In this document: piece by piece, positions 32,471 through 49,634 of the stretch
Layout of the letters: the number at the start of each line of letters is the position of its first letter
Position numbering within the stretch: position 1 is the first letter of the stretch
Source: an uncultured delta proteobacterium
GTDB lineage: Bacteria; Myxococcota_A; Polyangia; Polyangiales; B10-G4
Reading direction: 5' to 3'
NCBI GenBank assembly: GCA_963727445.1
Contig: CAVSGI010000010.1
Coordinates: 1,344,001 to 1,408,000 of the forward strand
DNA: 64,000 bases
The notes under the pieces: model-generated
Told to the model about the DNA's origin: nothing
The model's input: only the letters and a program-made list of their open reading frames with translations
Database searches by the model: none
Program-made: the position numbers and the translations under genes

Positions 32471-32548
32471 CGCGCGCATTATCGGATCAACACCCCCGAG
32501 GTGCGAGGATCGTGACCCGCAAATCGGGCGGGCCGCCAAATCCGTGCG

Positions 32549-32719
32549 TCAGGAGACGAGCAGGGCGAGCGAGGCGCTCAGGAGCGCGATCGTCACCAAT
32601 CCGGAGCCGAGGAGCATGGCCAAAAGAGCCCGAGAAATGGGCTCCTCGACCGGCGGGGCCAGGAACGCTGGGGCGACGACGCGAGCGCGAGGATCGAAGG
32701 GAGTGTGGGACGAGCGCAT
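32549..32719 (-). CDS. Possible small membrane protein (56 aa)
   Basis: C-terminal hydrophobic stretch ALLAMLLGSGLVTIALLSASLALLV fills an otherwise empty gap. Confidence 0.35.
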   Translation of the reverse strand: MRSSHTPFDPRARVVAPAFLAPPVEEPISRALLAMLLGSGLVTIALLSASLALLVS

Positions 32720-32860
32720 GAATCGACTACGACGGCGGCGCGGCTTCGGATCGATCGTGCGTGGGTGTCGTCGGGACACCTACATTTCCCAGAAAAAACG
32801 GGAAATATCGCGCAACGACGGACATCGACCCCTTGCAGAAAAGTGGCCTGAACAGCGACC

Positions 32861-35646: not shown

Positions 35647-37338
35647 TCAGAAGAGCGAAGGCCGCCACACCACGCCCGCGAGGACGAGGAGCGCGTCGAT
35701 GTCCCGACTGGTGAGCCCGTCGACGTCGACGGTGACGTCGAGCTCCGGCAGCGGCGTGAGCAGGATGCCGCCGCCGACCATGTGCTCGAAGTAGCGGTCG
35801 ACGTCGGCGCGGTAGCGCGTCAGCGCCGGACGGTAGTGAATGGAGAGGTCGAAGACGCCGGGGATGATCTCGGCGCCGACGCCCGCGCGGATCGCGTAGG
35901 TCTCGATGAGCTCGCCGGTGGTCACCATCACGGTCAGATCGGCGCGCGCCACGTCGAAGAGACGAACGGCTCGTGCGTTGACCCACCCCGCGAGCTGGTC
36001 GAGGCGGTCCTTCTGGCCGACCTGGATCACCGTGCCCCCCGCCGTCACCGCCACCTTTTCGAGCTCGACCCCCACGTCGGCCGCACCGACCATGCGCGGC
36101 TCGAACTGCCCGGTGCAGGTCTCGTTCTCTGTCGGCGTGGCGGGCGCCCCCGGCACACGCACACAGAGCCAGCTCGGCGGCAGGTAGGACGCGAGCCAGC
36201 GCGAGCGCTCCGGCCGGCGCATGTCGAAGCGCGCGCCCGCACGGAAGACGCCGAGGCGAAGCGTCCCGTCGACGCCGGCCGCGGTGAGCTCGACCTGATC
36301 GGCGCCCCAGGGGTTGTCCGCGTCGAAGAGGTTGATCTCCGCGTGCGCACCGACGCGGGACTCGCCGGGAAACATGTCCACAGTGGCCGTGAGGCGGCGC
36401 TCGTCGATGGCGCCGTTGTAGAGCGACCCGTGGCCGACCAGCGCCACCACCGGACGGAGCGGATGCTCGGGCATTCGGAAGATCGCCTCGAGCCCGAAGC
36501 GGCTGGTGTCGAAGTTGGGGGCGCCGTCGATGGGGTTGGGCACGAAGCCGCCGAAGCCGGCGACGGTGATGCCCGAGAAGTTCGGGGACTGAATGCGCAG
36601 GCCATCCAGCTGTCCGATGGTGCTCGCTGCGTAGCGCATGCGACCGAGCGCAGCGTAGAAGTCCGCCGTCTGGCCGTAGGCGATCTGGAGCTCTCGCACC
36701 CTGAGATACGGCTGCGACGGACGCCCGGCGCGCGTGTCGAGGTTCGGCGCCATCCAGGCCTGGAACGCCGCGTCCGCGTCGATGGAGAGCGGCGTCCCCT
36801 GAATGGGCTCGGCGTGGACCTGCGCGCGAACCGCCACGCGACCGATCCCCGTGCCCTGGCCGCCCAGGGGGAGCATGGCCGCGCCTCCGACACCGAGGGC
36901 CAGGTTCAGGCGATGCTCGGCGGTGGTGACGCCCAGAGGCACGTAGTCCGGTTGCTGCTCCGATGCCGGCAGGGTGGCGTCGGGCCACTGACCGCGGAAC
37001 GCGGCGAGCGGCCGCACCGGCGGCAGCGCCACTTCCTCTTCCGTCCCGGCGTCACGCCGCGTGATCGCGACCCCTCGCGCCCCCAGCTCCACTCCCGACG
37101 GCGGGATCTCGATCGTCGCGTAGGAGGAGGTGACGCCGATGACCTCGTAGCGATGGCGCTGGATCAGCACCCGATCGCCGCGCGAGATCCCCTCGTTGGC
37201 GCCGGGCTCGACGTAGGCACGATCGCCGCTCACGTCCACGACCTGCACCCGGACGCGACGACGCTCCTGAGCCTCGGCTTCCGCCGCGGACAACAGGCCC
37301 AGCAGCCAGAGCGCCATCATCGGAAGCAGCCGCGTCAT
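35647..37338 (-). CDS. Outer-membrane beta-barrel protein, candidate porin of a porin-cytochrome complex
   Basis: Signal peptide ..AEAEA; small N-terminal beta domain (VVDVSGDRAYVEPG..GISRGD, FlgT-C-like); many amphipathic strands; ends VVWRPSLF; ATGA overlap with decaheme gene. Confidence 0.75.
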   Translation of the reverse strand: MTRLLPMMALWLLGLLSAAEAEAQERRRVRVQVVDVSGDRAYVEPGANEGISRGDRVLIQRHRYEVIGVTSSYATIEIPPSGVELGARGVAITRRDAGTEEEVALPPVRPLAAFRGQWPDATLPASEQQPDYVPLGVTTAEHRLNLALGVGGAAMLPLGGQGTGIGRVAVRAQVHAEPIQGTPLSIDADAAFQAWMAPNLDTRAGRPSQPYLRVRELQIAYGQTADFYAALGRMRYAASTIGQLDGLRIQSPNFSGITVAGFGGFVPNPIDGAPNFDTSRFGLEAIFRMPEHPLRPVVALVGHGSLYNGAIDERRLTATVDMFPGESRVGAHAEINLFDADNPWGADQVELTAAGVDGTLRLGVFRAGARFDMRRPERSRWLASYLPPSWLCVRVPGAPATPTENETCTGQFEPRMVGAADVGVELEKVAVTAGGTVIQVGQKDRLDQLAGWVNARAVRLFDVARADLTVMVTTGELIETYAIRAGVGAEIIPGVFDLSIHYRPALTRYRADVDRYFEHMVGGGILLTPLPELDVTVDVDGLTSRDIDALLVLAGVVWRPSLF

Positions 37339-38222
37339 CGTCCGCGTCCTCCCGGATGGCAGGAGAGACAGGCGGCGCCGCTGGTCGCGACCGCGCCACC
37401 CCGGTGCTGCTGGCGGATCATGAGGGGCGAGTGCGCGTGGCAGCCGGTGCAGGACACGGCGTTGGTCGCCGGCTCGGAGAGGTGGCAGCTACGGCAAGGC
37501 GCTCCACGGTGCGAGCCGAAGCTGATCGCGAAGCGGATGTCGTGGGTCCGGGGCGCCGTGCTCGTGAGCGGGCTGGTGCGCGGCAGCGCGGTGGGATCGA
37601 CGAACGCCGGCGTCCAGCCGTCCGCGCGGTGACACGCCCCGCAGTCGCGAGGGAAGGGAGGGTTGCCGGCCGTGCCGTCGTGGTTGGGATGGACGCTGCT
37701 GTCGCGGTACTCGCTCTCGTGGCAGGCGTAGCACTCGGCCGGTGTCGCGCTGTACCAGCGCTCGCCGGTTCGCCGGTGGCAATCGGTGCAGGCCGCGAGG
37801 ACGTGCATGCCCGTGAGCGGCAGGCGCGTCTGCCGGTGGATGGTGATGGCGCTCGTCCGGTACCAACCCTGCGCGTTGTGGCAGCGGTCGCAGCTCTGTC
37901 CGAGGCGCCGCTGGTGCGGGTCCTGGTGGCAGCTGTTGCAGTCGCGGCGTACGCGCTGCTCGGGCTGGTGGCAGTTGGTGCAGGCCACCGCGCGGTGGCG
38001 GCCCGAGAGGGGGAAGCCGGTGCGGGAGTGGTCGAAGCCCGATTCGCCGCGCACCGTCCCGGTCACGCCCCACCCCTCGGGGGTGTGGCATGCGCTGCAC
38101 TGGATCCCCTGGGTGATCGACGCGTCGTGTCCCCGGCGTTGCGCCCCAGCGTTCGATCCCAGCACAGCCGCGCCGGCCAGACTGGCGACTGCCGCGAGAG
38201 CGAAGAGTACGCGTCCCCTCAT
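37335..38222 (-). CDS. Decaheme c-type cytochrome (295 aa)
   Basis: 10 CxxCH (CSACH, CTNCH, CNSCH, CDRCH, CTDCH, CYACH, CGACH, CRSCH, CTGCH, CLSCH); signal peptide MRGRVLFALAAVASLAGAAVLG; ATGA overlap upstream. Confidence 0.92.
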   Translation of the reverse strand: MRGRVLFALAAVASLAGAAVLGSNAGAQRRGHDASITQGIQCSACHTPEGWGVTGTVRGESGFDHSRTGFPLSGRHRAVACTNCHQPEQRVRRDCNSCHQDPHQRRLGQSCDRCHNAQGWYRTSAITIHRQTRLPLTGMHVLAACTDCHRRTGERWYSATPAECYACHESEYRDSSVHPNHDGTAGNPPFPRDCGACHRADGWTPAFVDPTALPRTSPLTSTAPRTHDIRFAISFGSHRGAPCRSCHLSEPATNAVSCTGCHAHSPLMIRQQHRGGAVATSGAACLSCHPGGRGR

Positions 38223-40057
38223 CGCTCCGGCTCCTCGTGCGGTGAGGCGTGACAATCGTTGCACTCGTTGTAGCCCAGACGATAACGCACGACCTCGGTG
38301 TCGTTGCGGAGATTGACGGTGGGGTGGCAGCTCGCGCACTCCGCCTGCGCGTGGCGGCCCTCGAGCGCCCAACCCGCCTTGGCCACGTGGTCGAAGCGGC
38401 GGATCTGGAAGATGGTCGTCGTGTGGCAGCTCTCACACGCCTTCTGCGGATCCGTGAGTCGGAACTGACCGGCGTGAACGTCTGCGTGACACCCCTGGCA
38501 CTCCCGCGGCGCGCCGCGGTAGCTCGCGCCGCGCCCCGAACGCCGGTCTTCCTCCGACGGAGAGTGACACGCGTCACAGGTGGTCAGCTCGTGAGCGCCC
38601 GTGAGCGGCCAGGTCGAGTGATCGATGTTCGGGCGATCCCACCCCGCCGCGCTGTGGCAGCTCGCGCATCCCCCCGCTGCCATCTCCCGCGCGAACTGAT
38701 CGCCGTGTGGGTTTTCGTGGCACGTCGCGCATGCCTCCTGGGCGCCGCTCCAAGAGAGGCGCGGGCGATTGTCGTGATGATGGCAGCCGCTGCACGGCAC
38801 GGCCGTGTGACGCCCCTCGAGCGCGAAGCCCGTGGAGGCGTGCATGGTCACGCCGAAGAGGCTGGGCGAGAAGCCTCGCACGGTGTGGCAGCCGCCGCAC
38901 TCGCCGCCCTCGCGGGACGCGAACTCGCCAGAATGCCGATCCTGATGGCACGAGTCGCAGCGGTCGAAGGTCAGCTCGCGATACCGCTCCTGAGGCGGCA
39001 GCCGGCGCTGGTGACATCGGTCGCAATCGACGCTCTCGTGGCGGCCTTCGAGGGGGTAGGCGGTGCGCGCGTGCGCCGCGCGACCGATCCGCTCGGGCAG
39101 CCCCGTCCACTTGATCGACCGGTGGCAGCGCGCGCAGTTGCGGCCGAACTCCGCTTCGTGCACCGGCCGGTGACAGCCGACGCAAGCGCGGCCTGCGCGC
39201 GGTGCGCGGTCGACGCCGGCGTCGTGACATCGTCCGCAGGCGACGCGCGCGTGACCGTTGCGCAAGGAGAGCCCCGGATGGTTGCTGCGCACCGCGCCGA
39301 GGTCGTCCCACCCGCTCTCGTTGTGGCACTGGGCGCAGCGCGGCCCGTACCGGCCGCGGTGAGGATCGGAGTGGCAGCTCGCGCAGGTGCTGAACTCGAT
39401 GCCGCGGTATCGGGGCGGCTCGCCGTGACACTCGCGGCAGGCGACGCTCCTGTGCTCTCCGCGCAGGGCGAAGCGCGAGAGCGAATGATCGAACTCGCTC
39501 ATGCGAACCGTCCGCCAGTTCTGCTCGTTGTGGCAGGTGTTGCATCGATCCCCGAAGCGGCCGCTGTGCGGGTCGTCGTCGGAATGGCAGGAGTTGCAGT
39601 TGGTCCTGAGCCCGAGATAGGTCCGGTTGCCGCGACGGTTGCGGCTATCGTGGCAGCGGCGGCACTGGATCTGGAGGTGACCGCCGCGGAGCGGCCAACC
39701 GGTGTCGTCGTGATTGAGTCGTTCCGGCGATCCGCCGGGCCAGCGCACCAGCGACGTACCGCGCCCGAGGTGCTCAACGTGACAGCTGACACAATCGCGC
39801 CCGCGATATTCGCGCCCGTGAAGCCCGCGATGCGCGCGGATCTGCGCCCCGAGGTCGTTGTGGCAGCGCAGGCAAGCGCTCTCCTCGACCCGCCGGCCGG
39901 AAGCGTGACATCGGTTGCAGTTGTCGTCGCCTTCGAGCTCGCTGTGCGCGCGGCTGAGCGGACCCGGCGAAAGGAGCTGAGCGCGCGCGACGGATGGAGG
40001 TCCCGCCACGACCATGGCGCTGCTGACCAGGAGGAGCGCTATCGTCTGTGGTCTCAC
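38219..40057 (-). CDS. Multiheme c-type cytochrome with 23 CxxCH motifs (612 aa)
   Basis: 23 CxxCH counted; signal peptide ..SVARAQ after GTG 40057 (GTGA overlap); repeated H..T.(F/W)PL.G.H..CxxCH units. Confidence 0.92.
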   Translation of the reverse strand: MRPQTIALLLVSSAMVVAGPPSVARAQLLSPGPLSRAHSELEGDDNCNRCHASGRRVEESACLRCHNDLGAQIRAHRGLHGREYRGRDCVSCHVEHLGRGTSLVRWPGGSPERLNHDDTGWPLRGGHLQIQCRRCHDSRNRRGNRTYLGLRTNCNSCHSDDDPHSGRFGDRCNTCHNEQNWRTVRMSEFDHSLSRFALRGEHRSVACRECHGEPPRYRGIEFSTCASCHSDPHRGRYGPRCAQCHNESGWDDLGAVRSNHPGLSLRNGHARVACGRCHDAGVDRAPRAGRACVGCHRPVHEAEFGRNCARCHRSIKWTGLPERIGRAAHARTAYPLEGRHESVDCDRCHQRRLPPQERYRELTFDRCDSCHQDRHSGEFASREGGECGGCHTVRGFSPSLFGVTMHASTGFALEGRHTAVPCSGCHHHDNRPRLSWSGAQEACATCHENPHGDQFAREMAAGGCASCHSAAGWDRPNIDHSTWPLTGAHELTTCDACHSPSEEDRRSGRGASYRGAPRECQGCHADVHAGQFRLTDPQKACESCHTTTIFQIRRFDHVAKAGWALEGRHAQAECASCHPTVNLRNDTEVVRYRLGYNECNDCHASPHEEPER

Positions 40058-40923
40058 TCGGACCAGATCCAACGATAGCCGTAGAACCAGGCGACTCCGA
40101 TGTGCACCGAAACTGAGAGGATCATCAAGATCGCGAGAAAGCGATGGAGCCCGCGCCAGCTGCGTAGGAGCGCGGTGCCGGCTGCGGTGCCCGCCTCGGC
40201 GCCGGCGAGCTTCGCGGTCTCCTTCGTGATGCGCTTGGCTTCCTCGAGCTCCTCCGGGAGCATCGTCTTCGGGCGCGTGAGCTCGTGAAACGCATCGCGC
40301 ACCACCCTGCGACGCGCGCGCTGCTCCTTCATCCATCGCGGGATGGTCGCGATGGCGCGCATGAGCGAGACGTTGGCCGCCAGGTAGGTGACCTTCTTCG
40401 CGCTCAGCTCTTTTCGGATCATGGCGCCGAGCCCCGGCAACAGCTCGTCCAAGGCCATCAGGTTGTCCGCGATCTGTTGGCTGTCCGGCTTGGGTGCGAT
40501 GGCGTAGAAGTACCGACCGATCACGCCCGTGAGCACCACCATCGAGAGGCTGGCAGATGTGACAGTTGCGATCGGTGTACGCAGTTGGAACGCCGAGTGG
40601 AACAGGATCAGCAGCGAGCCCACGAGCCCCGTCACTACGTGCATGTTCAGCCAGGCTTCCATCGAGCCCAGGAGACGGAGGCGGGCGACGCGCCGGCGAA
40701 CCAGATAGAGCAGATTCGTGAGAATCAAAAAGGTTCCGACGATTCCGTAGCCATGTCCGACGATGCTGCCAGGGCTCAGCACGCGGTAGTCGTCGTGCAT
40801 CACGCGGTCCTGGAGATCCATCGTGTAGAAGTCCCAGCCACGAGCCAGGAGCACCGCCGTCGTCCCCACGAGTATCAACAGGAGCAAGAAGCGGGCCCGC
40901 TTGGGCCGCATCTGTTGCTCCAT
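40054..40923 (-). CDS. Inner-membrane di-heme cytochrome b-like (ferric-reductase-type TM) protein
   Basis: About 5 TM helices; two H-x13-H pairs (WLNMH..LFH and WRGLH..SVH); start uncertain (40962/40950/40923/40911). Confidence 0.75.
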   Translation of the reverse strand: MEQQMRPKRARFLLLLILVGTTAVLLARGWDFYTMDLQDRVMHDDYRVLSPGSIVGHGYGIVGTFLILTNLLYLVRRRVARLRLLGSMEAWLNMHVVTGLVGSLLILFHSAFQLRTPIATVTSASLSMVVLTGVIGRYFYAIAPKPDSQQIADNLMALDELLPGLGAMIRKELSAKKVTYLAANVSLMRAIATIPRWMKEQRARRRVVRDAFHELTRPKTMLPEELEEAKRITKETAKLAGAEAGTAAGTALLRSWRGLHRFLAILMILSVSVHIGVAWFYGYRWIWSE

Positions 40924-41034
40924 CCGCGTGAGACTCCCCGTGTGGCGCATGAGCGGCCCCATGCTGCCGACCGCGCCGCTGGTGTCAACGTGAAAAGTAC
41001 GCTCGCGGCCATTGATTGGCGATAGTTTACGAGC

Positions 41035-42348
41035 GTGACGACCGCGATCATCCTCGCCGCCCTGGTCGGTCTCGCGCTGCTCCTGTCCTTCGCCTGGAAG
41101 AGCTTGGAAGGGGCGCGGGAGCAGAAGTCGGCGGACTTGCTCGCCGACATGGCGTCGATGGGTGATGTCGCCCCGCCAAGCCTCCACCCGTACATCGATC
41201 CTTCGAAGTGCGTCGGCTCGGGCGCCTGCGTTCGCGCCTGTCCCGAGCACGACGTCATCGCCCTCGTCGGCGGTCAGGCCCAGCTGATCAACCCCCTCGG
41301 CTGCGTCGGCCACGGGGCCTGCGCCGCGGCCTGCAGCTTCGATGCGATCAAGCTCGTCTTCGGAACCGAGACGCACGGCGTCGAGCTGCCCAAGACGGAC
41401 AGGAACTTTCAGACGAATCAGCCCGGCGTCTACATCGTCGGAGAGCTCGGCGGCATGGGGCTCATCCGCAACGCCGTGTCACAGGGCTCGCAAGCGGTGG
41501 CGCACATCGCCTCGGGCGGTCGGCGCGGCGGCGGGGATGTCTTCGACGTGATCGTGGTCGGCGCAGGCCCCGGCGGGATCGCCGCCACCCTCGCTGCGAT
41601 GGAGGCAGGCTTGAACGTCGTGTGCGTCGAGCGGGAGGAGCTCGGCGGAACCATCCTCCACTACCCGCGCGCGAAGGTCGTGATGACGGGCACCCTCGAG
41701 CTCCCGCTCTACGGCAAGGTCCGCAAGCGCACCATGAGCAAAGAGAAGCTCGTCGAGCTCTGGGACGACATCCGCGACAAGACGCAGCTGCCAGTGGCGA
41801 CAGGTGAGCTCGTCGAAGCGCTCGTGCAGAACGCGGACGGCACCTGGACCGTTCGCTCGACGACGGGGGATCGCCGTGGCGCCAACGTGGTGCTCGCCCT
41901 CGGGCGGCGCGGCTCACCCCGCAAGCTGGGTGTACCCGGCGAGGATCACGCCAAGGTCGCCTATCGGCTCCTCGAGCCGGAGGTCTTCGAAGGACAGCAC
42001 GTGCTGGTCGTGGGCGGAGGCAACAGCGCCGTGGAGAGCGCGATCGCCCTGGCCGATTACGGCGGCTGCGCCTCGGTGGGGATCAGCTACAGACGCACCG
42101 AGTTCGCGCGCTGTCGCGGCGAGAACAAGGCGCGCATCGCGGAGCTCCTATCGACGGGAAAGGTGCGGGGCTTCTTGCCGAGCAACGTCGCGCGCGTCGA
42201 AGATCGAACGGTGACTCTGCGCTCCGACGATGGACGCGAGGCGCCGCTCCAAAACGACGCGATCATCGTCCAGATCGGCGGCACCAGCCCGGCGAAGCTC
42301 CTCCAGAGCTTCGGGATCCAGATGGTGACGAAGTACGGCGAGCGTTGA
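41035..42348 (+). CDS. Membrane-anchored ferredoxin-FAD/NAD(P)H oxidoreductase (TrxR-like fold)
   Basis: N-terminal TM; CVGSGACVRACP and CVGHGACAAAC Fe-S motifs; VVGAGPGG FAD motif; VVGGGNSA..YRR NADPH motif. Confidence 0.88.
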   Translation: MTTAIILAALVGLALLLSFAWKSLEGAREQKSADLLADMASMGDVAPPSLHPYIDPSKCVGSGACVRACPEHDVIALVGGQAQLINPLGCVGHGACAAACSFDAIKLVFGTETHGVELPKTDRNFQTNQPGVYIVGELGGMGLIRNAVSQGSQAVAHIASGGRRGGGDVFDVIVVGAGPGGIAATLAAMEAGLNVVCVEREELGGTILHYPRAKVVMTGTLELPLYGKVRKRTMSKEKLVELWDDIRDKTQLPVATGELVEALVQNADGTWTVRSTTGDRRGANVVLALGRRGSPRKLGVPGEDHAKVAYRLLEPEVFEGQHVLVVGGGNSAVESAIALADYGGCASVGISYRRTEFARCRGENKARIAELLSTGKVRGFLPSNVARVEDRTVTLRSDDGREAPLQNDAIIVQIGGTSPAKLLQSFGIQMVTKYGER

Positions 42349-42354
42349 AGAACC

Positions 42355-43395
42355 TCACGGGCACGCGCTGGCACCGCCGCCCACGCAGATCGTCAGAGAA
42401 CCGTAGTCGCAACACTGCCCCGAACAGCCACCGCAGGGACAGGCGCTGCACCCGAGCGTCGTGAAGGTCCGGCAGCTCCCGCCGACGCAAACGGCGTTCG
42501 GGGCGCACGGCATGTCACACCCACCGCAGTGTCGGGGATCGGTCGTGATGTCGACGCAGTGATTGGAGCAGTTCGTCATCGTGGTCGTGCAGCGGTCCTC
42601 GCAGGTTCCGCTGCGACACGTGACCTCGCTCCCCGTGTCGCAGGCCCTACCCTCCGAGCCGCAGTTGTTCGGGTCGGTTCGCAGGATGGTGCAGCTCCCG
42701 TCGGAGAGCATGTCGAGCTCCGGGCGACACTCGCAGCTCCCGCCGGTGCAGTACTGCTCGCCGACGGCGCAGGACGAGCCGCAGCCCGGCACGCTGGTGT
42801 CCTCCGTGCTCGTATCCCACGACCCCGTGTCCCAACCCGAGTCGACGCGGGAATCACGTCCGCTGTCCCTGACGTTCGTGTCGGGTCGCGCGTCCATCGC
42901 GGTGTCCGGGGGCGCGTCGGGGAGCGCGTCCATCGCTCCGTCGGGCGCCGTCGCGTCGGGCATACCCGCGTCGTCGGACGTACAGCGCCCCTCTGTGCAC
43001 TCCATCGACGTGCAGGCCGCCTCGCCCGGACCCGGGTCGAGCGTCACGACGAAGGGGTCCACCTCGGTCGGCAGCGTGAGCTCGCGACACCCTTCGACGT
43101 ACCAGTGGCAGCTCTCGTTGCGCGCCCTTCCGCGTACGGCGTAGCTCCCCGCAGGCAGCGCCATCGGCCGCATGGTGCCCGACCCCGAAAGCGGAACCTC
43201 GGCGCTGAAGAGCACGCGCCCGTCGCAGCTCCCCTCGAGGATCGACGCCTCGACGTAGCGCGCCTGCGCCCGCTCGGCCTCGGTTCGAAAGTGAACGCCC
43301 CAATGGAGCGGGTGCGCATCGGCCCGGCACGCCGTGAGCAGGGTCAGCAGGACCCAAGCAGCGCGAATCGTCAGTTGCGACCGTTCGGATGACAT
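42355..43395 (-). CDS. Cys-rich lipoprotein with STIG1-like (DxxNCGxC) repeats
   Basis: Lipobox LLTAC; Asp-rich linker; TDPNNCG and TDPRHCGGCDMPC repeats. Confidence 0.8.
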   Translation of the reverse strand: MSSERSQLTIRAAWVLLTLLTACRADAHPLHWGVHFRTEAERAQARYVEASILEGSCDGRVLFSAEVPLSGSGTMRPMALPAGSYAVRGRARNESCHWYVEGCRELTLPTEVDPFVVTLDPGPGEAACTSMECTEGRCTSDDAGMPDATAPDGAMDALPDAPPDTAMDARPDTNVRDSGRDSRVDSGWDTGSWDTSTEDTSVPGCGSSCAVGEQYCTGGSCECRPELDMLSDGSCTILRTDPNNCGSEGRACDTGSEVTCRSGTCEDRCTTTMTNCSNHCVDITTDPRHCGGCDMPCAPNAVCVGGSCRTFTTLGCSACPCGGCSGQCCDYGSLTICVGGGASACP

Positions 43396-44276
43396 TCGAG
43401 GCAGAAGTTCACGGAGGAGGTGCCGGTTGGATAATCCCGAACCTCACGGTGCTTGCTGTCCATGCGGGAGCGCGAGTGTTCTCCGGTGTGACAGCCGATG
43501 CAGTCGGTGTTCATCCCGCCCGTGCTCGGCCCGAGATCCGGGTTGTGGCAATCGAGGCAGGCGTAGTCGTGAGGCTCCCGCTGGATCGGGAAGCGCGACT
43601 CCGGGTGCGCGGCCTCGAGCGCCGGCGTCCACGCGGTCGTCGTGTGGCACGTGTCGCAGGTCGTCGGGAAGGAGCCGTGCCCCGGATAGGGGCTCGAGTC
43701 GTAGTCTGCGCGGTGACAGCCCACGCAATCGCGCGGCGTGCCCGCGTAAACCGGCGGGCTGCCCACGTGACAGCTCGAGCACGCCGTCGCCGCGTGGGCG
43801 CCGTCGAGGGGCCAGGAGTGATCGAAGGTCGAGGGCCGCCAGGCCGCGTCGTCGTGACACTGGGCGCAGTCCGTGGGGTAGCCGTCGTGCGGCGGCATGG
43901 TGGCGTTGTCGTAGTCGCTCTGATGACAACCGACGCAGGTGTTCGGCGTGTCGCCGGGACGGTAGCCGACCGTATGACACCGGTTGCAGTCGAGCTCCGC
44001 ATGCGCGTTCTGGAGCACGAACCACTCGTGGTTGATCGCCACCGCCGGAACCCACGCGTCCTCGGTGTGGCAGTCGGCGCACTTGGTGTCGAAGAGATCC
44101 TGGTGCACCGGATTGTCAGTCGCCTGGTACTCGGGGAGGTGGCAGAGGACGCAGTCCTCCTCCATCACCGGCACCGCCTCGTGCCGGGGGTCCTGACAGG
44201 CCCCGAGGGCCGCCGCGGCCACGAAAACCAGCCCCAGGACCACACTCCATCCCCGGCGAGACATGACCATACGCAT
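43371..44276 (-). CDS. Lipoprotein multiheme cytochrome c with 11 CxxCH motifs
   Basis: Lipobox ALGAC; CVLCH, CADCH, CNRCH, CVGCH, CAQCH, CSSCH, CVGCH, CDTCH, CLDCH, CIGCH, CLECH; start 44276/44270/44264. Confidence 0.92.
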   Translation of the reverse strand: MRMVMSRRGWSVVLGLVFVAAAALGACQDPRHEAVPVMEEDCVLCHLPEYQATDNPVHQDLFDTKCADCHTEDAWVPAVAINHEWFVLQNAHAELDCNRCHTVGYRPGDTPNTCVGCHQSDYDNATMPPHDGYPTDCAQCHDDAAWRPSTFDHSWPLDGAHAATACSSCHVGSPPVYAGTPRDCVGCHRADYDSSPYPGHGSFPTTCDTCHTTTAWTPALEAAHPESRFPIQREPHDYACLDCHNPDLGPSTGGMNTDCIGCHTGEHSRSRMDSKHREVRDYPTGTSSVNFCLECHPNGRN

Positions 44277-44320: not shown

Positions 44321-47020
44321 TCACCGATCGAGGGGGACGATGACCCGGGTCCGCTGCCCTGCCCTCACCCGGATCGTCGCGGCTTTTTCGGGGCTTCGGC
44401 CGAAAGGCAGGAGCCGCAAGCGGTAGCTTCCTGGCCTCAGGCGCAAGGTCCCTGGGGATCGCCCGACGCGTTGATCCCCGATATACACGTCCGCCCACCC
44501 ACCGGGCGTCGCGATGTTCACGCGACCGCGCCTCGGCTGACGGGTTGTCGTCGGGGCTCGTGCCCCCCCAGGGTCCGGCGCCTCCTCGACGCTGGGGTCG
44601 GACGCCTCCTCGAGAGTGGGATCCGGCTGCGGATCGGGATCGCCGGGACCCAGGAGCTCGAGGCCGTCCTCGTCGCCTGCCTCCACCGCGACAGCCTCGG
44701 GCGCTTCGGGCTCGCCAACGGATGGGGTCACCTCTTCTTCGGTCGTCTCCGTCTCGCCTTGCTCTCGGGTGTCTCGGGTTCCGCGCTCGGGGGTGAAGAC
44801 GTGGGTGCCTGCCCACACGCCGATCACCGCCACCGCGATCACCGCTCCGATCCAGCCGATCGCCCGCAGGGGCGAGTGCGACTCCTCCGAGGGGTAGTGG
44901 CTGATGCGCTGCTCGGGTGGCGGCACCTCGATCAATTCCGAGTCACCGAGATTCTGCGTGTGGTGGGCGTCGTGCTTCTGGGGACCGCGCACGTGCGCAA
45001 TCAGGTCCTCGAGGTGCTTTCGTTCCCGGCCGAAGACCCGCTCCATCCACTCGGCGAGGTCCGCTCGAGAGACGGGCTCGGCCTCCGCCGCCATCACGCG
45101 CGCCAGATCGCGCCCGAGATCGCGCGCCGTCGGGTAGCGCTGGTCGGGGTCTCGGCTGAGCGCTTTGAGGGTGACCCGGTCGAGCTCCGCGGAGACCCGC
45201 GGGTTGAGCTCGGAGGGCGGCGGGATGGGAGCGTCGAGCACCGCCATCAGGGTGTCGGGATCATTGTCGCGCCGGAAGAGCCGCCGCCCTGTGAGCAGCT
45301 CCCAGAGCACGATCCCCATCGCCCAGACGTCGACGCGACGGTCGAGCTTCTTTCGCCGGCACTGCTCCGGCGAGACGTAGCCCAGCTTGCCCTTCATGGC
45401 GCCGGTCTTGGTCTTGTGGAGCCGGCCCGCCGCCCGCGCGATGCCGAAGTCGACGACGGTGACATGGCCCCCGAAGCCGAGGAAGAGGTTCTGCGGTGAG
45501 ACGTCGCGGTGGATCACGTCGAGGGGCTTGCCGAAGTCGTCCTTCGTCTCGTGGGCGGCGTGAAGCCCTTCGCACGCGTCCGCGATGATGTAGGCGGCGA
45601 GGGCGGGCCATGTCGGCGCCTCTCGGTCCTCCTTGCTCTCCGCGATCTTCTTGAACACCGCCCCCAGGGTCTCGCCCTGGATGAACTCCATCGCGATGTA
45701 GTAGCCGCCGTCGACCCGTCCGAAATCGAAGACGCTGCACACGTTCGGGTGGTCGATGCGCGAGGCGATGCGCGCCTCGTCCAGGAACATCTCGATGAAG
45801 GACGCTTCCCTGGCGAGGTGGGGATGGATGCGCTTGAGGGCGACGAGCTTCTCGAAGCCGCCCGGCCCTTCGGCGCGCGCCAAGAAGACGGTCGCCATCC
45901 CGCCCGAGGCCAGCTCCGCGCTCAAGGTGTAACGGCCGAATTTCTGGCCCGGCTGGGCATCGGAAAAGGACGCGCCCGGCGGGCGAATGGGCGTGAGGGC
46001 CTGCCCGTCGGCGCTCGTCACGGCGGTCACGAAGGAGTCGGCATCGCCGAAGTCCTTCAGGCTCAGCTCCGGCCTGATCTCGCCGGTCGGCTCGGCGACG
46101 AAAGAGCTCGGGCCGGGCTTGGGGTGAGGCCGGGTGGTCGCCATGTCGGTCGCGCGCCCGGCGAGCACGTCCCGGGCTGCACGCCCGCCCGCCGCACGTG
46201 CGCGTGCCACGAAGCCCTCGAGCACGTCCGCCACGTCGCGCGCCCGCTCCGGCCGCTCCTTCGGCTCGACCGCCAACATCGAGCGCAACAGTGGTCTCAA
46301 CTCCTCGGGAACCCCATCCCAGGCAACCACCTCCAGATCGGCCTCGGCCGGCAAGGCCCCGGTGAAGGCGCGCACGAGGATGCGACCGAGGGAGTAGAGG
46401 TCCGCTCTCGCGTCCACCGCCCCACGCCGCCACTGCTCTGGCGCCATGTACTCCGGGGTTCCACCGACGAGCGCCTCCTCGTCATCGACGGCGATGGCGA
46501 CGCCGAAATCCGTCAGGCGAACGTCGCCCGCGCGCGAGATGAGGATGTTCCCCGGCTTGACGTCGCGATGGATGATCGGCTGATGCTCGTTGTGGTGTGC
46601 ATAGTCGAGAGCCCGCGCCACCTCCGCCACGACGTGCGCGACCACATCGGGCGCGAGCTGCATCCCGGACTCCTGCGCCTCGTCGAGGATCTGGCCGAGA
46701 TCCGTCCCGTCCACCCACTCCATGGCGAGGAAGTACTCGTCGCCGGCCCGTCCGAAATCGAACACGGGAACGATGTTGGCGTGGGCCAGCCGCATGGAGA
46801 GGCGCGCCTCGCTGACGAAACGGTCGAGCGTCCCCGGTCGCGACAGCCGCTCGGCCTGGATGCGCTTGATGCACAGGTCCTTCACCACCCCGCCGGGCCC
46901 GAACGCCCGGGCGCGATGGACTTCGCCCATGCTCCCGCGACCGAGCGACTCGAAGAGAATGTACTTCCCGACGCGCTCAGGGCCTCTTGCAGGGCTCGCC
47001 TCCGACACGGCGAGGATCAT
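44321..47020 (-). CDS. Tandem dual-domain Ser/Thr kinase with TM and PEGA domain
   Basis: Two complete kinase cores (HRDVKPGN/DFG and HRDVSPQN/DFG); TM; TPGGWADVYIGD PEGA; true start may be GTG 47008. Confidence 0.9.
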   Translation of the reverse strand: MILAVSEASPARGPERVGKYILFESLGRGSMGEVHRARAFGPGGVVKDLCIKRIQAERLSRPGTLDRFVSEARLSMRLAHANIVPVFDFGRAGDEYFLAMEWVDGTDLGQILDEAQESGMQLAPDVVAHVVAEVARALDYAHHNEHQPIIHRDVKPGNILISRAGDVRLTDFGVAIAVDDEEALVGGTPEYMAPEQWRRGAVDARADLYSLGRILVRAFTGALPAEADLEVVAWDGVPEELRPLLRSMLAVEPKERPERARDVADVLEGFVARARAAGGRAARDVLAGRATDMATTRPHPKPGPSSFVAEPTGEIRPELSLKDFGDADSFVTAVTSADGQALTPIRPPGASFSDAQPGQKFGRYTLSAELASGGMATVFLARAEGPGGFEKLVALKRIHPHLAREASFIEMFLDEARIASRIDHPNVCSVFDFGRVDGGYYIAMEFIQGETLGAVFKKIAESKEDREAPTWPALAAYIIADACEGLHAAHETKDDFGKPLDVIHRDVSPQNLFLGFGGHVTVVDFGIARAAGRLHKTKTGAMKGKLGYVSPEQCRRKKLDRRVDVWAMGIVLWELLTGRRLFRRDNDPDTLMAVLDAPIPPPSELNPRVSAELDRVTLKALSRDPDQRYPTARDLGRDLARVMAAEAEPVSRADLAEWMERVFGRERKHLEDLIAHVRGPQKHDAHHTQNLGDSELIEVPPPEQRISHYPSEESHSPLRAIGWIGAVIAVAVIGVWAGTHVFTPERGTRDTREQGETETTEEEVTPSVGEPEAPEAVAVEAGDEDGLELLGPGDPDPQPDPTLEEASDPSVEEAPDPGGARAPTTTRQPRRGRVNIATPGGWADVYIGDQRVGRSPGTLRLRPGSYRLRLLPFGRSPEKAATIRVRAGQRTRVIVPLDR

Positions 47021-47028
47021 ACGCGTCT

Positions 47029-48372
47029 TCAGTCGCGGCGTGATGGGGGCGGCGGTTTGAGGCCGAGCTTCTCCATCCGGTAGAGCAGAGCCCGGCGGGA
47101 GATCCCGAGTCGTTTCGCCGCGTGGGTGCGGTTGCCGCCGCAGGCTTCGAGGGCGGAGAGGATCACGTCGCGCTCCGCGTCGTCCACCTTCTGTACGAGG
47201 CTACCGCCTCGGGCGTTGCTGGGCGAAGCGGAGAGGTCGCCGAGATCTCCTGCTCGCACCAGCTCGTGGGGGGAAGTCGCCACCACGCGCTCCATCACGT
47301 TGCGGAGCTCGCGGACGTTGCCCGGCCATCGATGACTGCGAAGGGCGGCCACCGCGTCGGGGGCCAGCTCGAAGGAACGCGAGGGGCTGAGCTCGGAGAG
47401 GAAGTGCTGCGCCAGCGGGATCACGTCCTCGACGCGCTCCCTCAGGGGCGGCACGAGGATGCGGACGACATCGAGCCGAAACCGTAGGTCCTCCCGAAAG
47501 CTCCCGCGCTCGACCGCTACGTCGAGGTCCCGATTCGTCGCCGCGATGACGCGAACGTCGATTGGGATCTCCTCCGTGTCGCCCACCCGGGTGATGACGC
47601 GCGACTCGAGGGCGCGCAGGAGGCGGGCCTGGGTGGCGAGGCTCAGCTCGGCCACCTCGTCGAGAAAGAGCGTGCCGCCCCCAGCCGTCTCGAAGAGCCC
47701 GGGCCGCCGGTCGCTGGCGCCGGTGAAGGCGCCCTTTTCGTGTCCGAAGAGGGTGGACATGGCGACCCCCTCAGCGATGGCCCCGCAGTTGACCGCCACG
47801 AAGGGTCCTCCGGCGCGCCGGCTTCGGCGGTGGATGCGCTGAGCCAGCACCTCTTTGCCCGCCCCGGTCTCCCCGAAGAGCAGGATCGTGCTGTCGGTGG
47901 CCGCGGCGCGATCCGCGAGCTCCAGCACCTCGTGCATGGCGCGATCGTGCGCGACGAGATGTGCGTCGGCCTGCGGCTCGCGCAGGTCTTGCGCATGGCT
48001 CCGCGCCGCGGTCCCACCGACCACGACCACGAAACGCGCCTCGCCGACCTGCAACTCCGCCCCCGAGGCGACGCGCCGCGTGCCCCGCACGCGCTGTCCG
48101 TCCACCAGGGTTCCGTTTCGGCTTCCATAGTCGACCAAAGTGACCGTGCCGCCGCCGTCCCAGCGGAGCGTTGCGTGAGTTCGGCTGACCAATCCATCGT
48201 CGACGACCACGCCCGAGGAGCGACTGCGGCCGATGCTGAGCTCGGCCCCGCGCGGCAGCTCGGCCAGCGGAGGCGCAGCGGGCCCGGAAACCACGGTGAG
48301 ATAGGCGCGCGGTCCGTCATTCCTCGGTTTGTCGAGGGGGGAATCGAAAGTCGTGCCGTCTCTCGCCGCCAA
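47029..48372 (-). CDS. FHA-domain sigma-54 enhancer-binding protein
   Basis: FHA IGR..VSRTHA..DYGSRNGT; GETGAGKE, GAFTGA, LFLDEV, WPGNVREL; Fis-type HTH; start uncertain (TTG 48372 avoids overlap with next gene). Confidence 0.93.
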   Translation of the reverse strand: MAARDGTTFDSPLDKPRNDGPRAYLTVVSGPAAPPLAELPRGAELSIGRSRSSGVVVDDGLVSRTHATLRWDGGGTVTLVDYGSRNGTLVDGQRVRGTRRVASGAELQVGEARFVVVVGGTAARSHAQDLREPQADAHLVAHDRAMHEVLELADRAAATDSTILLFGETGAGKEVLAQRIHRRSRRAGGPFVAVNCGAIAEGVAMSTLFGHEKGAFTGASDRRPGLFETAGGGTLFLDEVAELSLATQARLLRALESRVITRVGDTEEIPIDVRVIAATNRDLDVAVERGSFREDLRFRLDVVRILVPPLRERVEDVIPLAQHFLSELSPSRSFELAPDAVAALRSHRWPGNVRELRNVMERVVATSPHELVRAGDLGDLSASPSNARGGSLVQKVDDAERDVILSALEACGGNRTHAAKRLGISRRALLYRMEKLGLKPPPPSRRD

Positions 48373-48440
48373 GTCGCCGGAGAAATTATCACGTAAGCGG
48401 ACTTGTCGCCTCCCGGGGACCGCGGTGTACATTCGAGATA

Positions 48441-49634
48441 GTGAGAGCCTCGCTTCTTCTTCTTTCGCTGGTGGCATCCCTGCTCAGCGCCGCCGGCTGC
48501 AACTCCGAGCCGCATCCGCTCCGTTGGGGGTTCAGCTTCGACAGCGACGCGGACCGCATGCGGGCGGTCTTCGTGGATGCGGTCATCGCCGAGGGGAGCT
48601 GTGACGGCACGGTGCAGTACGAGTCGCTGATCCAGGTGAGCACGGGCGTGTCCGCCGAACGGCCGAACACGCTGGACCCCGGGCATTACTGTTTCCGAGG
48701 GCGCGCCCGAGACATCGACTGCAACTGGTTCGTCAGCGGCGAGCTCGAGCTCGACCTGCCCACCGAGCAGTCGCCGATCATCGTCGCCCTGAACACCCCG
48801 GAGACGGGCGCAGCGTGCGCGATGATGGAGTGCAGCGAAGGCCTCTGCACCGGCGAGACGCTCGATGGTGGCATGGACGCCACCCCCGATTCGATGCTTG
48901 ACGGCACCACCGACAGCACGGTCGTGGACAGCGGAACCGACACCCGCGCGGACACGCGTCCACCGGACACGGGGATCACGGACACCTGCGTGTCGATGAT
49001 GGAGACGTGCAACGGACTCGACGACGACTGTGATGGTCGCACCGACGAGGACTTCGACCTCAACACGGACGACGCGAACTGCGGAAGCTGCGGGATGGCA
49101 TGCACGGGCGACCTGAGCTGCATGTCCGGCTCCTGCGACTGTCCTTCGTCGCTGACCTTCGATCCGCCGAACAACTGCATCGACACCACCGCGGACCCGA
49201 GCAACTGCGGGGCCGTGGGTACCGTTTGTCGCGACGATCAGTGGTGCCGGGACTCGATATGCGAGTGTCGTCCTGGGCTCACCGACGCGTCGGGGACCTG
49301 CGTCGATCTCTCCACCGACCCGATGAACTGCGGCTCCATCGGCAACGACTGCAGCACCATGGGGTCGATGGTCACCTGCCGAAACACCTGCGAGGACAGC
49401 TGCAACGCCGGCCAGACGAACTGCAGCAACGCCTGCGTCGACCTCAACTCCGACGACTTCAACTGCGGCCTGTGCGGAAATGCGTGCAGTCGCGACCGCT
49501 TCTGCCGGGCCGGTCGATGCGACCGCTACGTCGTGGCGACCGGCTGCTCGTCGTGCCCCTGTGGCGCTTGCGGAGGAGGAACCTTCGACAACTGCACCAG
49601 CTACGGCAGCGCGACGATCTGCTACAACGACTGA
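48441..49634 (+). CDS. Cys-rich lipoprotein with MopE-like and STIG1-like repeats
   Basis: Lipobox AAGC; ETCNGLDDDCDGRTDE; four DxxNCG repeats; paralog of 42355-43395. Confidence 0.82.
   Translation: MRASLLLLSLVASLLSAAGCNSEPHPLRWGFSFDSDADRMRAVFVDAVIAEGSCDGTVQYESLIQVSTGVSAERPNTLDPGHYCFRGRARDIDCNWFVSGELELDLPTEQSPIIVALNTPETGAACAMMECSEGLCTGETLDGGMDATPDSMLDGTTDSTVVDSGTDTRADTRPPDTGITDTCVSMMETCNGLDDDCDGRTDEDFDLNTDDANCGSCGMACTGDLSCMSGSCDCPSSLTFDPPNNCIDTTADPSNCGAVGTVCRDDQWCRDSICECRPGLTDASGTCVDLSTDPMNCGSIGNDCSTMGSMVTCRNTCEDSCNAGQTNCSNACVDLNSDDFNCGLCGNACSRDRFCRAGRCDRYVVATGCSSCPCGACGGGTFDNCTSYGSATICYND

Follow-up and report, generated by a model that had tools for sequence, protein, structure and literature searches.

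Porin-cytochrome clusters of the types PCC3 and PCC4 encode an inner membrane protein (IMP) of ~300 residues with two WX3HX13H motifs and a (S/T)GxxG motif, reported as a five-helix protein whose HX13H pairs lie on helices 3 and 5 (He et al., 2017; PMC5566968). In PCC3 the periplasmic cytochrome has 21-27 hemes and a low residue-per-heme ratio (PMC10734462), and electron transfer across the envelope by this cluster has been called functionally unverified (bioRxiv 2025.02.27.639646). PCC3 carries some of the largest multiheme cytochromes described and is counted among candidate iron-oxidation genes. To our knowledge, nobody has shown what it does or in which direction electrons pass through it.

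Here we examine a 64,000-nucleotide stretch from an uncultured delta proteobacterium of the Polyangiales (assembly GCA_963727445.1, contig CAVSGI010000010.1, positions 1,344,001 to 1,408,000, forward strand; hereafter the window), in which a PCC3-type operon diverges from a gene for a membrane-anchored flavoenzyme with a circularly permuted thioredoxin reductase (TrxR) fold and a fused ferredoxin domain. A preliminary description had called the flavoenzyme 'FNR-like' (FNR, ferredoxin-NADP+ reductase); every motif quoted there is present in the open reading frame (ORF), and the TrxR fold, the absence of its CxxC and the NADP(H) signature agree with that label, but it misses the PCC3-type cytochrome cluster next door. 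We propose, with a probability of about 0.6, that the flavoenzyme serves as the NADP(H) terminal, on the cytoplasmic side, of a porin-multiheme cytochrome conduit of the PCC3 type that would export electrons.

The flavoenzyme gene faces a PCC3-type operon

The operon opposite the flavoenzyme gene encodes an IMP, two multiheme cytochromes and a putative porin, in the order published for PCC3 (PMC11429942). Its IMP has two WxxxH-x13-H motifs (at 87 and 252) and a TGxxG variant, and matches the IMP profile, which includes the window IMP itself, at E 2e-81; the four His and two Trp of the motifs are invariant in 56 of 56 rows. The 23-heme cytochrome, with 26.6 residues per heme, is matched by BLAST over nearly its full length (E 1e-73 to 2e-89) by cytochromes with 21 and 24 hemes from three loci with the published layout (L085-L087), which served as PCC3 comparison loci in place of published reference sequences and which contain an IMP, 21-24-heme and 17-27-heme cytochromes, a ~740-residue barrel and a flavoenzyme. 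No Pfam or NCBIfam match was found for the barrel ORF, and an ESM Atlas search returned unnamed clusters only. It clusters, however, with 18 barrel-like ORFs that lie beside large cytochromes, and the barrel profile matches the ~740-residue barrels of the proteobacterial clusters with a probability of 97% (E 6e-11), compared to 0.4% and 0.1% for controls. The operon is, by its gene content and motifs, a PCC3-type porin-multiheme cytochrome cluster, the barrel and the di-heme b character of the IMP being predicted.

The flavoenzyme ORF has a GTG start and no internal stop and is present in a single copy in the 9.5-Mb genome, its nearest named relatives being Polyangiales and 'Deltaproteobacteria' records; in the ESM Atlas it was matched by automatically named entries only. 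An AlphaFold2 model from a 65-row alignment (pLDDT 93.5, pTM 0.85) extends the N-terminal helix to residue 41. A hydrophobic helix occurs in 190 of 202 homologs with a full N-terminus, which upholds the membrane tether claimed earlier, and Lys and Arg are richer after than before it in 189 of these 190, none of which has a Tat motif. Because of this positive-inside pattern and the missing Tat motif, the flavoenzyme is, as read from its sequence, held in the membrane in N-out/C-in orientation, its catalytic part facing the cytoplasm; a periplasmic location was considered and is ruled out by the anchor pattern. The family comprises 710 clusters (50% identity, E <= 1e-30), and so large a family with a common architecture argues against a product of chance.

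Enzyme and IMP genes occur together across phyla

A genome scan confirmed at least 497 relatives, and 80 loci were examined, from Myxococcota, Alpha-, Beta- and Gammaproteobacteria, Bacteroidota, Ignavibacteria, Acidobacteriota, Planctomycetota, Gemmatimonadota, Nitrospirota, Calditrichota and others. An IMP homolog lay within 10 kb in 69 of the 80 and within 1.5 kb in 59, and was fused to the enzyme in four. ORFs with at least three CxxCH motifs were found in 68 loci, compared to 9 of 150 random 21-kb windows of the window's own genome, and ORFs with at least ten in 62. Barrel-like ORFs adjoined the large cytochrome in 28 loci, after four of 32 candidates that proved to be IMPs had been dropped. 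Among representatives of the best 150 of the 710 clusters, the IMP forms part of the same chain in 45 (C-terminally in 41, N-terminally in four), and 6-34 CxxCH motifs do so in nine. In four members (P0206, P0210, P0229, P0235), the enzyme appears to run on into a single hydrophobic helix and 20-34 heme motifs, and no IMP is part of the chain. At G102:C105:1736-3021 and G038:C1:2670082-2671101, the enzyme gene appears split or has an internal stop beside an intact IMP gene.

Co-occurrence was counted in two genome samples. Among 81 genomes from the family of a Nitrosomonadales metagenome-assembled genome (G061; the family is probably Gallionellaceae), 39 had both genes, one the enzyme only, none the IMP only and 41 neither, with ten weak enzyme matches that covered the N-part only, mostly ~800-residue frames of the sibling class described below, left aside. 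The enzyme gene was divergent within 2.5 kb at 39 of 47 IMP loci. Among 61 genomes of the window's order, the corresponding counts for strong matches were 13, one, none and 47 (two weak enzyme matches and one partial IMP match being set aside), and 12 of the 13 pairs lay on one contig within 4.5 kb. Every genome with a strong IMP match thus has the enzyme (39/39 and 13/13), counts that overstate the number of independent events because the genomes are kin.

The thioredoxin reductase fold is circularly permuted

In every TrxR-family structure listed, the part that aligns with residues 168-435 of the flavoenzyme is limited to the first ~270 residues, the best match being Bdr/YpdA 7a7b (chain 2-269, Z 21.6, root-mean-square deviation 5.3, 263 aligned; VIA-align), and the family profile TIGR04018 (Bdr/YpdA) is matched over positions 1-263 of 316; the flavin body thus ends at the equivalent of TrxR residue ~270. 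The segment that would be expected to follow lies upstream. Searched alone, residues 120-159 match the C-terminal stretch 298-339 of thioredoxin reductase 7jyp (E 0.0015), and a profile of this transposed piece matches (E 1e-16 to 1e-17; L081, L082) the C-terminal piece of an unpermuted sibling family of ~800 residues, where the matched stretch directly follows the N-part. In 146 of the 150 representatives the piece precedes the N-part, four being incomplete and none in normal order, and among sibling matches the order is normal in 112 of 120, with eight incomplete. The circular permutation first suggested from the letters of the gene is therefore borne out, the permuted order standing also where standard topology had been set as the counter-case. 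An assembly or frame artefact, considered as another source of this order, is ruled out by its family-wide occurrence.

The permuted form is probably derived from the unpermuted one, since the solved relatives and the sibling family are unpermuted. The flavin-body tree (122 permuted, 20 sibling and 3 outgroup sequences, with representatives limited to those with a near-complete domain and two readable motifs) unites the siblings in one group (support 1.0); because its three outgroups do not group, it fixes neither the root nor the monophyly of the permuted forms. The IMP-fusion state changes 12 times on this tree. The permuted-piece profile gave no match at E <= 1 to the genome's own CxxC thioredoxin reductase ORF, so the origin of the piece is deduced from its matches to 7jyp and to the sibling family. 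When short stand-alone relatives of the sibling were sought, many 'partial' rows came up, apparently fragments of the sibling family.

The catalytic body departs from TrxR in other ways. The CxxC of 7jyp aligns with the VAYRLLEPE segment (YRLLEP) of the flavoenzyme, and none of the 57 representatives (of 150) whose segment matched the search pattern has a CxxC there, in line with the loss noted in the preliminary description. Of the 150 representatives, 139 retain Arg353 and 127 retain Arg359, so that the NADP(H)-type signature noticed earlier is a family trait; in a pattern search that matched 127 sequences, YRG, YRK and YRR were the commonest forms. In the TrxR-type fold this Arg pattern binds the 2'-phosphate of NADP(H). 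Scores fall below the cut-offs of both TIGR04018 (137 vs 339.9) and TIGR01292, the low-Mr thioredoxin reductase family (67.8 vs 343.45, with the segment order permuted), and the flavoenzyme is, on sequence, outside TrxR, Bdr and classical FNR by their defining features. We infer that it works like an FNR with a built-in ferredoxin; its activity, preference for NADPH and cofactor content are predicted. In TrxR-type FNRs, a residue in the C-terminal tail of the other monomer stacks on FAD (PMC10294844). The equivalent helix of the flavoenzyme (144-160) leads via a short linker into the first FAD strand, and since the permutation joins them in this way there is no free C-terminal tail to cap FAD, a loss that may open the FAD face to the fused ferredoxin.

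A histidine ligand site defines the family

In both ferredoxin motifs the second Cys is replaced, by Ser62 and His93, as originally noted, and both residues are invariant in the 120 closest rows (119 relatives and the protein itself, all at least 58% identical). Across 136 scoreable representatives of 150, the second position of motif 1 is Cys in 70, Ser in 58 and another residue in eight, that of motif 2 is His in 122, another residue in 14 and never Cys, and no member has Cys at both. The genome loci agree (73 scoreable of 80), with Cys 37, Ser 25, Thr 9 and Ala 2 in motif 1 and His in 73 of 73 in motif 2. The His site thus defines the family and the Ser site is specific to certain clades; that Ser might define the family as a ligand is ruled out because its position is Cys in 70 of 136 representatives and 37 of 73 loci. 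Of the Ser/His conservation that had been set as a test, the His part therefore held (Cys in 0/136) and the Ser part narrowly did not. Changes between Cys and non-Cys at motif 1 number 12 on the tree, compared to a shuffled mean of 40.9. Some relatives have non-ligating Ala, Val or Ile at both sites.

Single-cluster ferredoxins of the CXX?XXC(X)nCP type with His or Ser at the second place had [3Fe-4S] in all those examined, with potentials from -203 to -85 mV and -31 mV for a His-motif ferredoxin (PMC6237146). Most likely, judging by these ferredoxins and the motifs, each cluster of the flavoenzyme would be held by three Cys with Ser or His as a potential fourth ligand, as [3Fe-4S] or His/Ser-ligated [4Fe-4S], at a raised potential. 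[3Fe-4S] is favoured because the Ala, Val and Ile found at the ligand sites of relatives cannot bind iron; His-ligated [4Fe-4S], which occurs in hydrogenases, is a possible alternative.

Several observations on the domain and its extensions may be added. Ser101 (41335-41337, + strand) follows the last cluster Cys of the flavoenzyme, where 111 of 120 close rows have Pro. Long C-terminal extensions, in the place of an IMP, mark a clade with Ser/His or Ala/His (P0141, P0143, P0151 and kin; ~580-1380 residues), with TPR matches in P0141 and P0151, and FHA domains occur in two other family members (P0188, P0245).

Other features of the window and its genome

Features of the window are listed in Table 1. 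The 11-heme lipoprotein gene lies outside the IMP operon; an 8-heme ORF is convergent with the flavoenzyme gene in L001 and L002, its likeness to the 11-heme lipoprotein being one of position only. The outer end of the window's conduit is uncertain, because the 10-heme protein without a lipobox resembles the periplasmic type.

Table 1. Coordinates in the window of the flavoenzyme, its parts and the neighbouring cytochrome genes.
Feature	Position	Strand	Basis or remark
Permuted TrxR/Bdr-like Fe-S flavoenzyme, membrane-anchored, 437 aa	41035..42348	+	ORF, profiles, model
N-terminal signal-anchor helix, residues ~1-25, N-out/C-in	41035..41109	+	hydropathy, model, positive-inside pattern
Two-cluster bacterial ferredoxin domain, residues 48-110	41176..41364	+	Pfam Fer4_10, PDB domains, conservation
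Ferredoxin motif 1, C59-x2-S62-x2-C65-x3-C69; second ligand Ser62	41218-41220	+	
Ferredoxin motif 2, C90-x2-H93-x2-C96-x3-C100; second ligand His93	41311-41313	+	
Transposed TrxR C-terminal piece (T..PGVYIVGE strand and helix), residues 113-160, preceding the FAD Rossmann fold	41371..41514	+	matches to 7jyp and sibling
FAD start (GAGPGG), hinge and NADP(H) domain (GGGNSA..YRR..R), residues 168-437	41536..42345	+	profile and structure matches
Divergent intergenic region between flavoenzyme gene and IMP operon, 123 bp	40912..41034	.	IMP start at 40911
PCC3-type IMP, 285 aa, predicted di-heme b	40054..40911	-	motifs, IMP profile
23-heme c-type cytochrome, signal peptide, ~612 aa, periplasmic PCC3 type	38219..40057	-	CxxCH count, BLAST
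10-heme c-type cytochrome, 295 aa, signal peptide without lipobox	37335..38222	-	
Predicted outer-membrane beta-barrel (porin), 563 aa	35647..37338	-	clustering and profile match
11-heme c-type lipoprotein (lipobox LGAC), candidate outer-membrane cytochrome; membership less certain	43371..44276	-	

Between the flavoenzyme and 11-heme lipoprotein genes lies a gene (42355-43395, - strand) for a Cys-rich MXAN_6577/STIG1-like protein of a large paralog family, which has another member at 48441-49634 (+ strand). On its flanks (28577-34795 and 44321-48477) the cluster has ORFs that by their motifs resemble Ser/Thr kinases, two kinase-like regions being present in one of them, and an ORF that resembles FHA/sigma-54 activators. 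The genome contains 27 ORFs with at least four CxxCH motifs, among them a second multiheme cluster of six ORFs with 6-29 CxxCH (G000:C2:64867-79759, - strand) and a 26-heme ORF (G000:C10:601753-605373, - strand).

Upstream of the enzyme gene at other loci, a palindrome resembling that of the CRP/FNR regulator family (GTGA-N6-TCAC, up to two mismatches) was found in 13 of 32 divergent promoters, compared to 2.3 expected from dinucleotide shuffles and to 91 of 590 other windows; it lies 30-170 bp from the enzyme gene in L009, L013, L016, L017, L059, L064, L074, L045 and others, and is absent in the window. Boxes resembling those of the regulators FNR, Fur and Rex occurred in 5, 2 and 4 of the 32, compared to 2.4, 1.0 and 0.0 in base shuffles. 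In the intergenic region of the window (40912..41034), boxes of the FNR, CRP, Fur and Rex kinds were all absent within the thresholds used.

Proposed electron path and its alternatives

In the mechanism that we propose, NADPH would pass hydride to FAD in the permuted TrxR-like body, FAD would give single electrons to the two tethered Fe-S clusters, and these would reduce the cytoplasm-side heme b of the IMP. From its second heme b, electrons would reach the 23-heme periplasmic cytochrome and then, through the beta-barrel, an outer cytochrome and an extracellular acceptor. Such a chain would resemble that of NOX or Fre-MsrQ, with a TrxR-fold flavoprotein and ferredoxin as the dehydrogenase and with no quinone, and the permutation would remove the FAD-capping tail and free the chain ends for anchor, ferredoxin and IMP fusion. 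We infer from the sequences the direct contact with the IMP, the independence from quinone and this purpose of the permutation. The wiring from flavoenzyme to IMP to cytochromes, which rests on linkage, fusion and topology, is highly probable.

The NADP+/NADPH couple lies at about -320 mV, and electrons are driven outward by a membrane potential that is negative inside. The FAD of Bdr has a potential of -242 mV (bioRxiv 2020.12.02.408641). Given the wiring, outward flow is the likely direction, because the reported potentials fall in that order and the membrane potential opposes inward flow to NADP+. Like the NOX superfamily, the IMP has a pair of bis-His HX13H motifs for heme b, on helices 3 and 5 (helix placement from PMC5566968), and for MsrQ, first held to be quinone-fed, cytosolic Fre has been argued to be the donor (PMC12525009). 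In Sideroxydans ES-1, both PCC3 clusters are reported as down-regulated on Fe(II) (PMC8788666); in one supplement of that paper, Slit_1443-1445 and Slit_0871 were not found. Complex prediction for enzyme and IMP, with two hemes and FAD included, scored 0.37, compared to 0.27 for a single control, a difference that we take neither for nor against their contact. A PDB sequence search with the IMP profile gave nothing below E 0.07, and a fold search with a model of the IMP of L032 was dominated by matches of long helices (best Z 9.4); neither result tells against a kinship to ferric reductase domains.

Several points weigh against an NADP(H)-fed exporting conduit. No IMP was found in the available DNA at 11 of the 80 loci, several of which have short flanks. 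In the family sample, no enzyme gene lies within 2.5 kb of the IMP at eight of the 47 loci; each of the eight belongs to a genome with two IMPs and an enzyme copy elsewhere, in one case 5.6 kb away. The genomes sampled are related and not independent, so that the co-occurrence counts are no statistical test, and a clade of ~1000-1400-residue members is fused to TPR or unassigned regions, not to an IMP. By sequence, a kinship of the IMP to ferric-reductase domains is weakly supported, Ferric_reduct (PF01794) being matched by 8 of 41 IMPs with a best E of 2e-4. The 10-heme cytochrome of the window has no lipobox and gives its better score with the periplasmic type. Iron oxidizers commonly carry PCC3, and in iron-oxidizing cells of Sideroxydans CL21 the IMP from one of the PCC3 copies is up-regulated, which fits uptake (bioRxiv 2025.02.27.639646).

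Run in the opposite direction, the conduit would draw electrons from low-potential outside donors (reduced minerals, metal, electrodes, partner cells), and the enzyme would reduce NADP+ for biosynthesis. In the scheme of He et al. (2017; PMC5566968) PCC3 serves uptake, the cluster is frequent in iron-oxidizing Gallionellaceae (PMC10734462), the CL21 result just cited points the same way, and TrxR-type FNRs, as is textbook knowledge, can run towards NADP+. By equally standard knowledge, however, inward flow to NADP+ opposes both the redox gap and the membrane potential; moreover, the non-Cys ligands suggest clusters of higher potential (PMC6237146), the ES-1 clusters go down on Fe(II) (PMC8788666), and many of the lineages that carry the module are not known to be lithotrophs. 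We consider this direction unlikely, if the best sustained of the alternatives.

The IMP could also be a quinone-reactive cytochrome b with quinol as its main input, leaving the enzyme as an accessory NADPH dehydrogenase that feeds the IMP or the quinone pool. Such an input is the published PCC3 model (PMC5566968) and would suit the second-copy IMPs without an adjoining enzyme, the co-purification of MsrQ with ubiquinone (PMC12525009) and the weak cytochrome b561 matches of 6 of 41 IMPs. An accessory role sits poorly with the absence of any strong-IMP genome lacking the enzyme (0/39 and 0/13) and with the fusion of 45 of 150 representatives to the IMP, and we think it rather improbable.

Less probable again is a low flux of reductant for upkeep or sensing (periplasmic hemes or thiols, assimilatory metal reduction, redox signalling) instead of bulk extracellular electron transfer. 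Relatives with FHA, TPR or tandem cNMP-type (cyclic nucleotide) regulatory regions and the CRP/FNR-family-like palindromes at 13 of 32 divergent loci would be at home in such a system, and outward flow from NADPH would conserve no energy, but a cell that makes cytochromes of 20-67 hemes and a porin spends much on so small a flow, and the Fur box is not enriched (2/32, 1.0 expected). Finally, a Bdr-like reductase of low-molecular-weight thiol disulfides, or a stand-alone FNR with the cytochrome genes as mere neighbours, is very unlikely. In its favour, Bdr/YpdA gives the best family and structure matches; against it, the score is 137 with a cut-off of 339.9, Bdr has no anchor, ferredoxin or permutation, and the gene is tightly linked, and in relatives fused, to the IMP.

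The exporting conduit with an NADP(H) terminal is thus the reading that we prefer, and the flavoenzyme, as a permuted TrxR-fold enzyme, is probably the missing cytoplasmic end of PCC3. A near-constant NADP(H)-linked fifth component would shift the PCC3 model from quinone-linked uptake to a cytoplasm-to-surface conduit, most likely an exporting one. If true, this changes how PCC3 is to be read in metagenomes, and myxobacteria, Bacteroidota and other lineages join those with porin-cytochrome electron transfer. More speculatively, PCC3 might be a quinone-independent, NOX-like wire from NADPH to the surface in many phyla, with two [3Fe-4S] clusters in the Ser/His members and Cys/Ser switching at motif 1 tuning the driving force. 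The small enzyme and its defined partner form an assayable pair, and the enzyme in its own right is a two-site test case for non-cysteine Fe-S ligation and a natural circular permutant of the thioredoxin reductase fold.

Comparison with known systems

Bdr/YpdA (TIGR04018; PDB 7A76, 7A7B, 7APR) is the closest solved relative in fold and sequence (Z 21.6, 22-24% identity) and, like the flavoenzyme, has FAD and NADPH domains and no CxxC. Bdr itself, however, is unpermuted, soluble and tetrameric, has neither Fe-S domain nor anchor, and reduces a small disulfide (bioRxiv 2020.12.02.408641), and the cysteine of its GGPCG is replaced in the flavoenzyme (GAGPGG). TrxR-type FNRs (YumC, CtFNR, BcFNR1/2; PDB 3LZW, 3AB1, 6GAR, 6GAS) likewise combine the TrxR fold with an NADP(H) signature and no CxxC, and their one-electron exchange with Fe-S or heme partners invites comparison with the flavoenzyme, which differs in its fused ferredoxin, its membrane anchor and the lack of an FAD-stacking C-terminal tail. 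The CXX?XXC(X)nCP ferredoxins (Child et al., 2018; PMC6237146) share the exchange of the second Cys for His or Ser; they are small single-cluster partners of P450s, whereas in the flavoenzyme both sites of a fused two-cluster domain are changed.

The unpermuted ~800-residue sibling (TrxR-like, cNMP and multi-Fe-S regions) is the nearest relative of the flavin body that we found and shares its signature motifs, but has normal N-to-C order, no anchor and C-terminal all-Cys ferredoxin motifs. It falls in the same size class as the 796-805-residue 'other redox protein' of He et al. (Table S6; PMC5566968), who mention 'other redox proteins' for PCC4 and porin-less clusters only. In L081 (5295-7679, - strand) and L082 (4585-6954, - strand), the sibling gene is in an operon with genes for an IMP-like protein and a 9-heme cytochrome. 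The middle region of the sibling (~790 residues) resembles tandem cNMP-binding domains, followed by a multi-Fe-S domain. The sibling is possibly a nucleotide-regulated version of the same conduit.

In NOX/ferric reductases and in Fre-MsrQ-MsrP, a cytosolic NAD(P)H flavoenzyme feeds a membrane protein with His-ligated heme b, and this protein supplies an acceptor beyond the cytoplasm (PMC12525009), as we propose here. The dehydrogenase differs, being a TrxR fold with Fe-S clusters in the flavoenzyme and an FNR/Fre fold for NOX and MsrQ; so do the membrane protein, the IMP being reported with five helices, and the acceptor, which in PCC3 is a multiheme wire with a porin.

Among the publications listed by our literature search, with most subscription papers outside it, none deals with a TrxR-like Fe-S flavoprotein in permuted form or with a porin-cytochrome system linked to NADPH. 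No flavoenzyme is named in the text and supplement text examined for the PCC3 papers, and the word thioredoxin is absent from their main texts, figures aside. The IMP motifs, the large periplasmic-type cytochrome, the second multiheme cytochrome, the barrel and the gene order are common to published PCC3 (PMC5566968, PMC10734462) and the window, where the barrel is of a shorter, ~550-residue type and the outer cytochrome is uncertain. Published PCC3 consists of four genes with a quinone-linked IMP and has been studied in Proteobacteria, whereas the window adds a fifth gene that links the cluster to NADP(H), in a module whose range extends to Myxococcota, Bacteroidota, Acidobacteriota, Planctomycetota and others.

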